DNA of 4,947 bases from a virus (IMGVR_UViG_2547132273_000019); one strand, 5' to 3'; numbered from the stretch's first letter, positions 173 to 4,354 are shown. The notes: a model not told the origin generated them from the sequence alone. Numbers and translations are program-made.

Positions 173-580
173 TTATCTTTTATTTGTCCGCTGACGGGCT
201 TTTAGTAATTCTTCAAAGAGTTTATTGAAGTTTTTTACTCGAGCTCGCATTTCGGCGAGCTGGGTATCCTGTTCTGATTCTGGCAGTGCATTAAACAGCT
301 CAAGGAGCTCTAGTTCTTTGGGGGATAAGGCAACTGGCTTCTCAACAGGTGGTGTTGGTTGCTTGTCTTCATCGCCAAATAGAATCCATGTTGGTGAGCA
401 TTGCAATACTTTGCTGAGGGCAAAAAGGTTCTTCCCTGTAGGTTCACTATCATCCCGTTCCCATTGTGATACAGACACATGGGAGATTTTCAGGGCTTTA
501 GCAAGAGACCTTTGGGTGTGTTTGAGGTTTTTCCGACGATACCTAATGCGTTCGCCGATAGTTAAATTTTTTGTTTCCAT
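173..580 (-). CDS. Phage repressor, XRE-family HTH (CI-like), short form without a LexA/S24-type autocleavage domain
   Basis: 135-aa ORF. N-terminal HTH signature TQRSLAKALKISHVSVSQWERDDSEPTGKNLFALSKVLQCSPTWILFG, then a Pro-rich linker and a ~45-aa helical tail. It is divergent from a cro-like gene and flanked on both sides by palindromic operators. ATG at 580-578, stop TAA at 175-173. Confidence 0.85.
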   Translation of the reverse strand: METKNLTIGERIRYRRKNLKHTQRSLAKALKISHVSVSQWERDDSEPTGKNLFALSKVLQCSPTWILFGDEDKQPTPPVEKPVALSPKELELLELFNALPESEQDTQLAEMRARVKNFNKLFEELLKARQRTNKR

Positions 581-602: not shown

Positions 603-631
603 TTGACTATGTTTTTGTTAACATCTATTTT
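603..631 (+). promoter_or_regulatory. Rightward sigma70-like promoter (P_R analogue) for the cro-like operon
   Basis: -35 TTGACT (603-608), 17-nt spacer, -10 TATTTT (626-631). The operator 633-646 covers the predicted transcription start. A Shine-Dalgarno AAGGTG (652-657) sits 6 nt before the ATG at 664. Confidence 0.5.
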
Positions 632-894: not shown

Positions 895-1399
895 ACAGGC
901 TCGTGAGGCTCTGGATGCCTGGATATGTCGACCAGGAATGACACAGGAGCAGGCGACGATATTAATCACTGAAGCATTCTGGGCTTTGAAAGAGCGCCCG
1001 AACATCGATGTTCAGCGTGTCACAGATGAAGGTGGCGCGGTTGATCAGCGAGCGCTTGGCGTTAATCGAGTGAAGATATTCGAACGCTGGAAGGCTATCG
1101 ACACCAGGGATAAGCGTGAAAAGTTCAGGGCGCTAGTGCCTGCGATTATGGAGGCTATCCGGATTAGTGATTTCAGGTTGTATCGTGAGATCAGTGATGG
1201 AAAAAGTATTACGTACATGATCGCCGGGTTAAATAAAGAATATGGCGATGTGGTGGAATCCGGACTGCTTTTTGCAGATCCTGCCGTTGTAGATCGTGAA
1301 ACTGACGAACTTATAGAAAAAGCAATTGCTTTCAAGCTTGCGTATCGACAGCAATACCAACAAAAAGCTGGATGGAATTATGAGTCTTCTTTTTGCTGA
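878..1399 (+). CDS. YdaT-like early regulatory protein (CII-position analogue); function tentative
   Basis: 173-aa ORF. Its start overlaps the cro-like stop by 17 nt (ATG 878, upstream stop 892-894), suggesting translational coupling. It occupies the position of cII/ydaT in Rac-like prophages. The family assignment is from recollection of YdaT-like features (MKI start, IFERW, ALVPAI) and was not searched. Confidence 0.55.
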   Translation: MKITPEQAREALDAWICRPGMTQEQATILITEAFWALKERPNIDVQRVTDEGGAVDQRALGVNRVKIFERWKAIDTRDKREKFRALVPAIMEAIRISDFRLYREISDGKSITYMIAGLNKEYGDVVESGLLFADPAVVDRETDELIEKAIAFKLAYRQQYQQKAGWNYESSFC

Positions 1400-2345
1400 A
1401 CGCCCACTGGTTATAAACACGCAGCTGGCAATGAAAATTGGCTTAAACGAAGCCATTGTTTTGCAACAACTGCACTACTGGTTGAGAGATACCAACTCCG
1501 GCATGGAATGTGATGGTGTTCGCTGGATTTACAACACAACGGAACAATGGCTGGAACAGTTCCCATTCTGGTCAGAGTCAACGTTAAAGCGCGCGTTTGC
1601 AAGTCTGAAAACGCTGGGGCTTTTGCGTTGTGAAAAGCTCAATAAATCAAAGCGCGATATGACCAATTTCTACACGATTAACTATGGGAGCGAGCTTTTA
1701 GATGATGGCAAATTGAGCGAATCCATCGGTTCAAAATGCGCCGCTCCATCAGGTCAAAATGACACGATGGAAGAGGTCAAAATGAAACGCTCCATTGGTT
1801 CAAAACGACCCAATGTCATCGGGTCAAAATGGCCCGATGATCCTACAGAGAATACAACAGAGATTACTACAGAGAATAAAAACACTTTTCGTCCGGAAGC
1901 TTCGCAACCGGACCCGCAGACGGCTGAACAGGATTTTTTAATCCGGCACCCTGGCGCAGTTGTGTTTAGTGCGAAAAAACGCCAGTGGGGTAGCCAGGAG
2001 GATCTGGCGTGTGCGCAGTGGATATGGGGGCGGATCGTGGGTCTCTACGAACAGGCCGCCAGTGATGATGGCGAGATCATGCGACCAAAAGAGCCTAACT
2101 GGACTGTCTGGGCCAATGATGTGCGCACAATGCGGATGCTGGATGGCAGAAGCCACAGACAAATTTGCGAAATGTTTGGTCGGGTACAGCGGGATCCATT
2201 CTGGGTAAAAAACATCATGAGCCCGTCAAAACTCCGCGAAAAATGGGACGAACTGGTCATCCGCCTGGGACGTTCACCTGTACAGCGTTGTGTGAATCAT
2301 ATTTCTGAACCGGATACAGAAATTCCGCCTGGTTTCAGAGGATAA
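1380..2345 (+). CDS. Phage replication initiation protein (O-like replisome organiser) containing the origin iterons
   Basis: Long ORF. The N-terminal region (LVINTQLAMKIGLNEAIVLQQLHYWLRD...STLKRAFASLKTLGLLR) looks like a winged-helix origin-binding domain. Five DNA iterons lie in the middle of the gene and a conserved C-terminal domain follows. The ATG at 1380 overlaps the upstream stop (1397-1399). The ORF track extends to a TTG at 1326; the true start is uncertain. Confidence 0.8.
   Translation: MSLLFAERPLVINTQLAMKIGLNEAIVLQQLHYWLRDTNSGMECDGVRWIYNTTEQWLEQFPFWSESTLKRAFASLKTLGLLRCEKLNKSKRDMTNFYTINYGSELLDDGKLSESIGSKCAAPSGQNDTMEEVKMKRSIGSKRPNVIGSKWPDDPTENTTEITTENKNTFRPEASQPDPQTAEQDFLIRHPGAVVFSAKKRQWGSQEDLACAQWIWGRIVGLYEQAASDDGEIMRPKEPNWTVWANDVRTMRMLDGRSHRQICEMFGRVQRDPFWVKNIMSPSKLREKWDELVIRLGRSPVQRCVNHISEPDTEIPPGFRG
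1722..1831. repeat. Origin iterons: five direct repeats, consensus TCCATYGGTYCAAAATG, 23-24 bp period
   Basis: Copies begin at about 1722, 1745, 1768, 1791 and 1815, each with core GGT(T)CAAAA(T/C)G at 1728-1738, 1752-1761, 1775-1784, 1797-1807 and 1822-1831. The period is not a multiple of 3, so each copy is read in a different frame (GSKC, GQND, EVKMK, GSKR, GSKW). That indicates selection at the DNA level. Confidence 0.8.
1840..1890. other. AT-rich tract with short direct repeats (ACAGAGAATA twice) downstream of the iterons; candidate DNA-unwinding element
   Basis: The sequence gatcctacagagaatacaacagagattactacagagaataaaaacacttttc is clearly A+T-richer than the surrounding gene. ACAGAGAATA occurs at 1845-1854 and 1870-1879. 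Confidence 0.5.
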
Positions 2346-2385: not shown

Positions 2386-2787
2386 GTGGCAAAAGTTTTT
2401 ACACAAGAAGAGCGGGAAAAAATTAAAGGGCAGGTGGTGGAACTCGTGCGCCAGAGCGGTCGTGAGACGTTACGGCAACTGGAAGCTAAAACAGGTGCGA
2501 CTAGATATCTGATGAGCGTTCTTGCTAGAGAGCTGGTAGCCAGTGGCGATGTATACAACTCCGGCTACGGGTTATTCCCGTCTGAACAGGCGCGTAAGGA
2601 CTGGCAAAACGCCCGCAAAAAACTCTCGAGGGCAAAGGTGAAGAAACCTGCTGTGGTTGATCCGGACCTTATCTGGTCATTACCTGACGGAGAAATACGC
2701 CGCTACGACAGTCGTCTAAACATAATCTGCCGCGAGTGCCGGAAGAGTGAAGTTATGCAGCGCATACTGGCATTTTATCAGGGATAA
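2386..2787 (+). CDS. Hypothetical phage protein (133 aa), basic, possible winged-helix fold
   Basis: GTG start at 2386 with a strong Shine-Dalgarno AAGGGGG (2375-2381). It lies 40 nt after the replication gene stop and is probably co-transcribed. No recognisable catalytic motif. Stop TAA at 2785-2787. Confidence 0.6.
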   Translation: MAKVFTQEEREKIKGQVVELVRQSGRETLRQLEAKTGATRYLMSVLARELVASGDVYNSGYGLFPSEQARKDWQNARKKLSRAKVKKPAVVDPDLIWSLPDGEIRRYDSRLNIICRECRKSEVMQRILAFYQG

Positions 2788-2884
2788 TGTTAGGTATTTT
2801 AGACGTTACTAGATTAAAAAGCATTAGTTCAGGAGTGAATTGACATTCTCATTTTTCATGGCACAGGGTAGATCTGGCGTGGTT

Positions 2885-2908
2885 GTCCGCTTTGTGCCAA
2901 CAGCGGAC
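2885..2908. repeat. Inverted repeat GTCCGCT-N10-AGCGGAC (hairpin or protein-binding site), copy 1
   Basis: 7-bp perfect arms with a 10-nt spacer (ttgtgccaac). No U-tract follows, so it is not a canonical intrinsic terminator. The same arms and spacing recur at 4587-4609. Confidence 0.5.
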
Positions 2909-3074
2909 GTTACTAACGAAACTGTGAGTTAAAAACGGGAGCTGGTCACCTCCATCCCGCGAAATGGAATTCAAAAATGCCCTCATGTACGGTACTTCTA
3001 CTCTGATGTGAGCATTTTCGTGGATTTTTTCGAGCCACTCCAACGAATGATTACATTCAGTTTCGGGCACTAAA

Positions 3075-3090
3075 ACGTCATAACGTCATA
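3075..3090. repeat. Tandem direct repeat ACGTCATA x2
   Basis: Sequence aacgtcataacgtcata in the 540-bp spacer. Function unknown. Confidence 0.4.
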
Positions 3091-3276
3091 AATCCGCAAG
3101 TTGAGGAGTAGCGATCAGCCAATTGGTTAAAAAACAGCTTTAATTCCCTTTTTCAAGCAGGCTCCTTGTCGCACGTCTGGTGCATCCAATTCATTTCAGT
3201 TACCCTGATGCCATACTGGCACGGACTAGCTCTCTTAATTGGCGCTGGTTTGTTAACCTTGTCCGCTGTCGGGTCT

Positions 3277-3307
3277 TTGTAAGTTGTAATTCCTAAACTA
3301 GCATAAT
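3277..3307 (+). promoter_or_regulatory. Candidate own promoter for the RelA/SpoT-domain gene
   Basis: -35-like TTGTAA (3277-3282), about 19 nt spacer, -10-like CATAAT (3302-3307), then Shine-Dalgarno TAAGG (3315-3319) and ATG 3329. The spacer is slightly long; this is a weak call. Confidence 0.3.
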
Positions 3308-3328
3308 TTTATTATAAGGCCTCTTACT

Positions 3329-4354
3329 ATGCACATTTTATCTGTTTCAAAAAAGGAAGTTGGAAGAGCTGGGGATAGATTAGTTTCTCAGTTTGGTACA
3401 GGTGAAAAATATAAAGAGGAAGATGTACAAATTCTTCATGAGTGGAGGATGTTGCATTTATATCCTTTAAGTAAAATACAATTTTATATGGAAAGAGAGG
3501 CTATTTCCTTAAACAAAAATGCGTTACTATCCTCTAGAATTAAGAGGATGCCTTCCATTGTTACTAAGCTTTCTAGATTTCCTGATATGAAGTTAAATAA
3601 GATGCAGGATCTTGGTGGGTGCCGGGCTATTTTAAATAATCTGGATCAAGTGTATGATTTAGTTAATAAAATAAAATCATCTAAATTCTCACATGAACTA
3701 GTTAGAATGGATGATTACATGATAGACGTGAAAGATTCTGGTTATAGAAGCTTTCATATGGTCTATTCATTCCAAAATAAAAAATTTCCATCTTTAAATG
3801 GGTTGCGCATTGAAATGCAAATAAGAACAGCTATTCAACATAGCTGGGCTACAGCAGTTGAAATGGTTGGTTTGTTTCGAAAGGAATCATTGAAATCTGG
3901 TTTTGGTGATGCAAGATGGCTTAGGTTTTTTGAATTGGTATCAGAGCTTTTTTATAAACTTGAGTATGAAAAAGAACCATCTGGGAGTTATATAAAAATA
4001 TCAGAAGAATTAAGTTATTTATCCGTCGAGTTGAATGTTTTCGATATATTAGCTGCTTACAATGCCGTTGTTAGCCATATTGAGGGTAGCAAAAAATATG
4101 ATAAAGGACTTTGCATAATTGTTGTTGATACCATAAAGCGGAATATAAATATAAAGAGCTTCGAAAATCACAATCATGCGAAGGCGGCAGAAGCTTATGT
4201 CGAGTCTGAAAAATACTGCGCGGAAAATAAAGGCTGTGAAGTGGCTATGGTTTCTGTTAGTTCAATTAGTGAATTAAAAAATGCATATCCTGCTTACTTT
4301 TTAGATACGAAAACTTTTTTAAATTATCTCAGTAGGTATGTTTTTATAAAATAA
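3329..4354 (+). CDS. RelA/SpoT-domain nucleotide pyrophosphokinase (small alarmone synthetase-like) with a C-terminal extension; candidate toxSAS or fused toxin-antitoxin (CapRel-like) defence protein
   Basis: 341 aa. Synthetase-fold motifs in order: RIKRMPSIVTKLSR (R-x-K-x3-S-I-x2-K), QDLGGCRAIL, DDYMIDVKDSGYRSFHMVY (compare NGYQSIHTVV in RelA) and EMQIRTAIQHSWA (compare EIQIRT...H). About 115-150 residues follow the SAS core. Hand counts of sample 60-nt lines give about 23-30% G+C inside the gene against about 53% in the replication gene. Confidence 0.85.
   Translation: MHILSVSKKEVGRAGDRLVSQFGTGEKYKEEDVQILHEWRMLHLYPLSKIQFYMEREAISLNKNALLSSRIKRMPSIVTKLSRFPDMKLNKMQDLGGCRAILNNLDQVYDLVNKIKSSKFSHELVRMDDYMIDVKDSGYRSFHMVYSFQNKKFPSLNGLRIEMQIRTAIQHSWATAVEMVGLFRKESLKSGFGDARWLRFFELVSELFYKLEYEKEPSGSYIKISEELSYLSVELNVFDILAAYNAVVSHIEGSKKYDKGLCIIVVDTIKRNINIKSFENHNHAKAAEAYVESEKYCAENKGCEVAMVSVSSISELKNAYPAYFLDTKTFLNYLSRYVFIK

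Follow-up and report, generated by a model that had tools for sequence, protein, structure and literature searches.

Replication origins that lie inside the gene for their own initiator are already known. In phage lambda, ori is situated in gene O, between the two domains of the O protein, and SPP1 has its origin within the initiator gene as well. Many RepA_N plasmids reportedly carry the origin inside the rep gene, as Weaver et al. are said to have described in 2009. The iterons of RepA_N origins are direct repeats that are semi-palindromic, and the inverted arms of each converge on a tract of poly-A (PMC7145576). At the origins used by RK2 TrfA and F RepE, the Rep protein binds one strand of the repeats in the DNA unwinding element (DUE), and the sequence of the motif, not just its A+T content, is required (PMC4081077). 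Here, we describe the analysis of a viral stretch of 4,947 nucleotides (IMGVR_UViG_2547132273_000019; the whole stretch is referred to as the window, and is numbered from its first letter), which corresponds to the part of a lambdoid (Qin/Rac-like) Escherichia coli prophage that carries its immunity and replication genes. From the sequence, we propose that positions 1701-1890 are quite probably the vegetative replication origin of this prophage, situated inside its own initiator gene (1380-2345, plus strand, 321 amino acids).

The layout of this locus is classical and ordinary in kind, since an origin inside the initiator gene is already known from lambda. As in lambda, the origin is placed between two domains of the initiator, and the iterons start at codon 115 here and at codon 117 in O. 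In both cases the repeat units are dyads, with GC-rich arms around a CAAAAyG centre and a spacing of 20-24 bp, and are followed by a tract that is A-rich on the coding strand (48% A here, 57% in lambda). In lambda, taken as a control, the duplex-stability minimum of the gene was likewise found directly after iteron 4. The C-terminal domain (C-domain) of the present initiator is homologous to the C-terminal, P-binding half of O (34% identity over 148 amino acids, E 3e-27 by BLASTP), and a ren-like gene is present downstream. The differences from lambda are the following. The N-terminal domain (N-domain) is not of the Phage_rep_O family, and has no BLASTP similarity to that of O. There are five or six contiguous 23-bp units here, versus four 18-bp units in lambda ori. 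The A-rich tract here consists of conserved 12-mers, no P gene is present, and the initiator carries a DnaT-like C-terminal tail that lambda O lacks.

Likenesses to plasmid systems are also evident. The consensus arms of the present iterons converge on an A-tract, as described for RepA_N iterons, and the domain arrangement resembles that of the RepA_N proteins (pSK41/pTZ2162 RepA, Vibrio PLE RepA), in which DNA binding falls to the N-terminal domain and the C-terminal domain varies and is specific to the host. The present locus departs from RepA_N in its lambda-O-like C-domain, in hosts that belong mainly to the Proteobacteria and in being part of a lambdoid phage. With the RK2 and F origins the locus shares iterons that adjoin a putative DUE of repeated short motifs, which matches the strict conservation of the 12-mers; the Rep proteins of those origins, however, are unrelated (two winged-helix domains), and the origins have 13-mers and DnaA boxes and lie outside the rep gene. 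The likeness to E. coli DnaT (primosomal protein I) is limited to the tail of the initiator. The present locus joins an N-domain like those of RepA_N and DnaD to a lambda-O-like C-domain and a DnaT-like tail, has no loader, and is apparently an undescribed member of this kind of origin. No paper on its motifs was found in a literature collection that lacks much of the older subscription literature; the motif strings GGTCAAAATG, ACAGAGAATAC and others returned only unrelated primer sequences, and an apparent 'replication protein O' match in PMC4132743 proved to stem from its reference list.

The elements of the proposed origin are as follows.

1701-1723: degenerate iteron 0, GATGATGGCAAATTGAGCGAATC, in 23-bp register with the array
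1724-1746: iteron 1, CATCGGTTCAAAATGCGCCGCTC
1747-1769: iteron 2, CATCAGGTCAAAATGACACGATG
1770-1792: iteron 3, GAAGAGGTCAAAATGAAACGCTC
1793-1815: iteron 4, CATTGGTTCAAAACGACCCAATG
1817-1839: iteron 5, CATCGGGTCAAAATGGCCCGATG, the best palindrome (18 of 23 positions self-complementary), adjoining the 12-mers
1845-1880, plus strand: three tandem 12-mers ACAGAGAwTAmw (ACAGAGAATACA, ACAGAGATTACT and ACAGAGAATAAA), the proposed unwinding and loading element
1843-1890, plus strand: A-rich tract of low stability, 69% A+T, 48% A on the coding strand

Five 23-nt units, with spacings of 23, 23, 23 and 24, were found by a repeat search, and the same arrays were reported by Tandem Repeats Finder. This bears out an earlier note on this DNA, made from the sequence alone, which had described five copies with a 23-24-bp period in the initiator open reading frame (ORF) and had interpreted them as an origin. 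The periodicity is beyond chance, as the autocorrelation at lag 23 is 0.59, against a mean of 0.40 and a maximum of 0.47 in 200 codon shuffles of the ORF. The repeat unit given in the earlier note, TCCATYGGTYCAAAATG, proved to be approximate. The consensus of the five iterons is a perfect 10-3-10 palindrome, CATCGGGTCA-AAA-TGACCCGATG, around an A-tract, and this 23-bp dyad is the better description of the unit. At the position of iteron 0 a good copy is found in mEp460_4F5 and in a Klebsiella phage. No further copy of the iteron core GGTCAAAATGA (up to two mismatches) or of the 12-mer core ACAGAGAWTA (up to one mismatch) was found on either strand of the window, and the window has no DnaA box at up to one mismatch.

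The 12-nt units were placed by the repeat search between 1843 and 1881. Among all 40-mers of the gene, the one beginning at 1851 forms the weakest duplex (-44.6 kcal/mol, compared to a gene mean of -55.1 with a standard deviation of 3.4). The AT-rich stretch with repeats that had been noted behind the iterons does contain three repeated 12-mers; its A+T content, however, is moderate, and its salient property is the conservation of its sequence, not only its composition.

The initiator gene was assigned the following parts.

1380-1703, plus strand: N-terminal winged-helix domain, residues 1-108 (winged helix in the AlphaFold2 model, residues 10-108)
1704-1904, plus strand: predicted disordered linker, residues 109-175 (AlphaFold2 confidence about 24)
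1926-2267, plus strand: C-terminal domain, residues 183-296, helical in the AlphaFold2 model
2280-2342, plus strand: DnaT-like C-terminal tail, VQRCVNHISEPDTEIPPGFRG

Confidence is given here as the predicted local distance difference test score (pLDDT); its mean over the AlphaFold2 model is 60, with values of 64-84 in the N-domain. In this model the predicted recognition helix comprises residues 66-78, with Ser67 at its N-terminus. The iterons span codons 108-154, between the winged-helix domain and the C-domain. As the nucleotides that code for the disordered linker are those of the iterons and the 12-mers, the origin would occupy the part of the ORF with the least protein constraint.

That the ORF encodes a replication initiator was confirmed by its match to phrog_391, 'replication initiation O-like' (3e-92), and by the homology of its C-domain to lambda O. 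In RefSeq the protein is named 'hypothetical protein', and its close homologues in a large protein collection are also unnamed and without a Pfam domain. Pfam and NCBIfam scans of the initiator assigned no family, and the sole useful match was that of the DnaT tail. Sequence membership of Phage_rep_O, RepA_N and DnaT was tested for each, and each test failed. The N-domain did not match Pfam Phage_rep_O (PF04492) at E up to 10, where the N-terminus of lambda O, used as a control, gave 7e-37, and in BLASTP against lambda O only the C-terminal halves aligned. Pfam RepA_N (PF06970), searched at E up to 10, was hit neither by the N-domain of the window nor by three homologues. Pfam gave no match in the initiator to Phage_rep_org_N (PF09681) or DnaB_2 (PF07261), and a PDB sequence search with the initiator matched the tail only. 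Parts of the initiator are matched by PHROG families named 'DnaD-like helicase loader', names that are unproven annotations. The fold of the N-domain is closest to the winged helices of RepA_N and DnaD. The N-domain family has 10,285 representatives at E <= 0.001. Many of the distant ones, of 390-880 amino acids (P0125, P0128, P0130, P0134, P0147 and others), carry a tandem double N-domain, which recalls the two-winged-helix architecture of plasmid Rep proteins.

A comparative set was assembled from ten phage homologues (Klebsiella, Pantoea, Erwinia, Pseudomonas, Providencia, Acinetobacter and Staphylococcus) and 80 loci from one-genome-per-species bacterial assemblies. A scan of IMG/VR gave only near-identical E. 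coli copies, which were used for the polymorphism analysis; the diversity was taken from the genome collection. We observed a repeat array directly behind the homologous N-domain in the ten phages, and, of about 85 genes that range from Enterobacterales to Bacillus, the large majority had the same layout. Among the 80 loci, the best autocorrelation lag after the N-domain was 23, occasionally 24, in nearly all Proteobacteria; about half of the Firmicutes loci had a lag of 21-22, and the rest had no clear period. The units are dyads around CAAAwTG everywhere, and the base that flanks the centre varies by lineage.

This flanking base, counted over both dyad arms together, tracks residue 67 of the initiator, which precedes the invariant Thr68 in FPFWSxxTxKR. 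The association holds in all 64 distinct initiators. Ser67 goes with the half-site TCA (35/35), Asp67 with GCA (22/22) and Lys67 with ACA (5/5); the single case of Arg67 has ACA, and the single case of Val67 has TCA. On a neighbour-joining tree built without residues 66-67, residue 67 changed its state at least nine times, so that one or two clades alone do not account for the association. These data are strong in silico evidence that the initiator reads the iterons, as a symmetric dimer.

Constraint at the level of DNA was assessed from the polymorphism among 58 distinct E. coli alleles that are 90-99% identical. In the N-domain, 56 of the 107 third codon positions are polymorphic, against 8/107 first and 5/107 second positions; in the C-domain 72 of the 110 third positions are polymorphic. 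The third-position bias of both domains reflects protein-coding constraint, and the iterons are without such bias (10, 13 and 11 polymorphic positions by codon position, of about 46 each). Iteron 5 is polymorphic at 2 of its 23 positions and the 12-mers at 3 of 39. Only one of the 13 third positions in the 12-mers is polymorphic, a deficit that is significant both against the N-domain (Fisher p = 0.002) and against the C-domain (8e-5).

In the diverse set, about three quarters of the distinct loci have the motif ACAGAGAnTAC beside their last iteron, and its carriers include Enterobacterales, Pseudomonas, Desulfuromonas, Campylobacterales, Geobacillus and a Staphylococcus phage. Threonine inside the 12-mers is encoded by ACA (263 codons) or ACT (95), with two cases of ACG and none of ACC, while elsewhere in the same genes these codons occur 274, 266, 286 and 402 times, respectively. 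Glutamate is encoded inside the 12-mers by GAG in 179 cases and never by GAA, compared to 658 GAG and 777 GAA elsewhere in these genes. Three loci have one 12-mer copy in another frame, which encodes DRDY in place of TETT. Because the codon choice is fixed and some copies are out of frame, we concluded that the 12-mers are conserved as nucleic acid and not as peptide. The claim that the repeats are kept for a function of the DNA is upheld by the disordered linker, by the absence of codon-position bias and by the co-variation of the half-site in 64/64 initiators. The lambda-like arrangement, with repeats between a DNA-binding and a C-terminal domain, is equally borne out, and overall the interpretation given in the earlier note is supported.

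The comparison with E. coli 214-4 (NZ_CP025840.1; L172:1832-1930) indicates how these elements are inherited. Its initiator has the same C-domain and tail, joined to a different helix-turn-helix N-domain. It has its own phased repeats of about 15 bp, TTGACCCGTCAAAT, which form a 33-nt inverted pair, and no ACAGAGA 12-mers were found in the gene. This gene has the appearance of a second type of origin built into the same gene scaffold. The N-domain, the iterons and the 12-mers are thus exchanged as one specificity cassette, while the C-domain stays constant. From this behaviour, the 12-mers would be functionally tied to the N-domain family, and not to the C-domain or the host. In lambdoid phages the N-terminal part of O and ori behave as such a cassette.

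The course of events that we infer, from binding through unwinding and helicase recruitment to replication itself, would be the following. Dimers of the N-terminal winged-helix domain would bind the five or six 23-bp dyad iterons, whose GC-rich arms converge on the A-tract, and residue 67 would read the base beside the central CA...TG. The phased array would build an O-some-like nucleoprotein complex that may destabilise the adjacent A-rich 12-mer tract (1845-1880). Opening of the tract would be aided by torsional stress and by transcription from a pR-like promoter ahead of cro (603-631, plus strand; TTGACT-17-TATTTT, a consensus match only), as rightward transcription from this position would cross the origin region. 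One strand of the tract may be held sequence-specifically, in the way that plasmid Rep proteins hold the 13-mers of a DUE (PMC4081077); such a specific recognition of one strand is suggested by the conservation of the 12-mer sequence. Finally, for want of a loader of its own, the phage would bring in host DnaB through the lambda-O-like C-domain together with the DnaT-like tail.

The observations on the missing loader agree with the earlier statement that no loader gene follows the initiator. The next gene encodes a DUF977/Ren-like protein of 133 amino acids, which is not a helicase loader. In the complete 45-kb genome of the related phage HannyBb, no gene is annotated as P, DnaC-like, helicase or primase; the larger of the early ORFs that lack an annotation are QueH, DUF968 and a 205-amino-acid ORF without a family match. 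The tail of the initiator aligns over its full length with the C-terminal 21 residues of DnaT, with 14 identical residues that include SEPDxxIPPGFRG (PDB 2ru8, 6aep and 9zbt). The NCBIfam DnaT model (NF002770) gave 16.3 bits over model positions 160-179 only and did not reach its cut-off of 201 bits, and neither the N-terminal domain of DnaT nor its three-helix domain for binding single-stranded DNA was detected in the initiator. The 63 nt that code for the tail are common to otherwise unrelated E. coli phage initiator genes, and PHROG families match the tail alone. The label 'Primosomal protein I' on some phage records is likewise due to the tail alone.

We compared the next genes among distinct initiators, with the tail defined as P-x-G-F/W-R/K. 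A loader or helicase gene was next in none of the 26 tail-bearing initiators (their next genes include PerC in 11 cases, HTH_24 in 7 and DUF977 in 5). Among the 58 tail-less initiators it was directly next in at least 16 (IstB/DnaC-like in 11, DnaB_C in 3 and lambda P in 2). The association of the tail with the lack of a next-gene loader has a Fisher p of 0.002, for cases that are not phylogenetically independent. With modest confidence, we suggest that the tail replaces a phage loader by docking onto a host partner of DnaT. The part seen of a 2026 paper on the preprimosome (PMC13377028) does not state the binding partner of the extreme C-terminus of DnaT. As a tentative idea, and one that we would not expect to hold in full, the locus may represent a loader-less design in which a DnaT-tail mimic replaces a P- or DnaC-type loader and plugs the origin complex into replication restart (PriA/PriB/DnaT) or into DnaB-DnaC, and in which the ACAGAGAnTAC 12-mers, conserved from Enterobacterales to Firmicutes, are a second, sequence-specific element of the origin that the N-domain family reads as single-stranded DNA.

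Several points weigh against the proposed origin. Iterons 1-4 are fairly polymorphic among the E. coli alleles. The putative unwinding tract has an A+T content of just 69%, and the window has less stable stretches in other places. The 64 cases of co-variation are not phylogenetically independent, and about nine switches underlie them. The confidence of the AlphaFold2 model is modest, and the contact between residue 67 and the base was deduced from the co-variation. Many carriers are cryptic prophages, so that the origin in the present copy could be inactive.

Part of the evidence could also be accounted for if the repeats were initiator-binding sites for regulation only (autoregulation, handcuffing copy control or exclusion of related phages), with the origin located elsewhere. 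Plasmid iterons also serve control functions, and the co-variation of residue 67 speaks for recognition and not for initiation. We nevertheless consider this explanation unlikely. No copies of the repeats are found near the promoter or elsewhere in the window, for which reason an autoregulatory operator was rejected. The array is flanked by a conserved, DNA-constrained element of low stability, which is the signature of an origin rather than of an operator. The homologous arrangement in lambda is an origin, and the complete HannyBb genome has no other annotated candidate origin or replication gene.

Improbable to a somewhat greater degree is the explanation that the conserved stretch serves chiefly for recombination, as a shared joint where phages exchange the N- and C-terminal modules of their initiators, and not for unwinding. 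The similarity to other E. coli initiators does start just past the 12-mers, at query position 500, and otherwise unrelated initiator genes have the final 63 nt, the coding sequence of the tail, in common. However, the partner gene of E. coli 214-4 is without 12-mers, which places the joint downstream of them. The 12-mers also stay with the N-domain family across phyla and in combination with different C-domains, fitting a function tied to the N-domain, and the iterons are left unexplained by a joint.

A protein-level or slippage repeat without DNA function in a low-complexity linker (SIGSK...SIGSK...VIGSK; TENT-TEIT-TENK) would suit a disordered linker that tolerates repeats, three of the five units in one frame ([SV]IGSK) and 12-mers in frame (TExT), but we rejected it as highly improbable on frames, dyads and codon usage: the two remaining frames are used by units 2 and 3, the dyad in each unit is not explained, homologues keep the DNA period and the dyad but differ widely in peptide, a residue of another domain co-varies with the half-site, and the synonymous codons of the 12-mers are fixed, with some copies out of frame. 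The statement that the copies encode different peptides accordingly holds for iterons 2 and 3 and not for iterons 1, 4 and 5, which share one frame and encode SIGSK, SIGSK and VIGSK, respectively.

The replication origin proposed here lies in a region with the gene order cI, cro, YdaT-like gene and initiator. The genes that surround the initiator are the following.

173-580, minus strand: cI-like repressor gene
664-894: P22-type Cro gene
878-1399: YdaT/cII-like gene
2386-2787, plus strand: DUF977/Ren-like gene, 133 amino acids (Pfam DUF977, 5e-28; phrog_142, 'Ren-like exclusion protein')
3329-4354: RelA/SpoT-like gene of low GC content

The initiator starts with the ATG at 1380, as its homologues begin with MSLL; a start at the TTG at 1326 was rejected on the same ground. 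The YdaT/cII-like gene and the start of the initiator gene overlap by 20 nt (1380-1399). In the database proteins P0002-P0004 (448 amino acids) the YdaT/cII-like and initiator ORFs are fused, which suggests frameshift variants or mis-calls. The RelA/SpoT-like gene encodes a 341-amino-acid RelA/SpoT-domain protein in an island of 32% GC, and matches the PADLOC candidate defence family PDC-S33 (5e-119) and phrog_4773. It is missing at the corresponding position in PhiR42_1 and HannyBb, and resembles a defence 'moron' that was inserted behind the replication genes. Between the DUF977 and RelA/SpoT-like genes, about 540 bp (2800-3328) have no convincing gene and no Rfam match, and contain a perfect 8-nt tandem, AACGTCAT, in 2.2 copies (3074-3091). 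No Rfam family was matched anywhere in the window.

The same initiator gene is present at 95-98% identity in the isolated phages PhiR42_1, HannyBb and mEp460_ev081. It is found at full length in 1791 of 5426 complete E. coli genomes, that is in about a third of them, BL21 included. Three contigs from gut metagenome bins, assigned to metagenome-assembled genomes of Veillonella parvula (L092), Bacillota (L093) and Collinsella (L159), have an N-domain 100% identical to that of the E. coli prophage gene, and are most likely mis-binned Escherichia contigs.

An annotation gap in a very common prophage module is closed once this protein is recognised as an initiator whose gene probably holds the origin. 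The rule by which residue 67 (Ser, Asp or Lys) goes with the half-site base (T, G or A) could predict origin specificity and incompatibility among lambdoid phages. Two leads emerge, the 12-mer element and the DnaT-tail mimic, and the latter offers a handle on how loader-less phages may recruit DnaB, as well as on what the conserved tail of DnaT binds.

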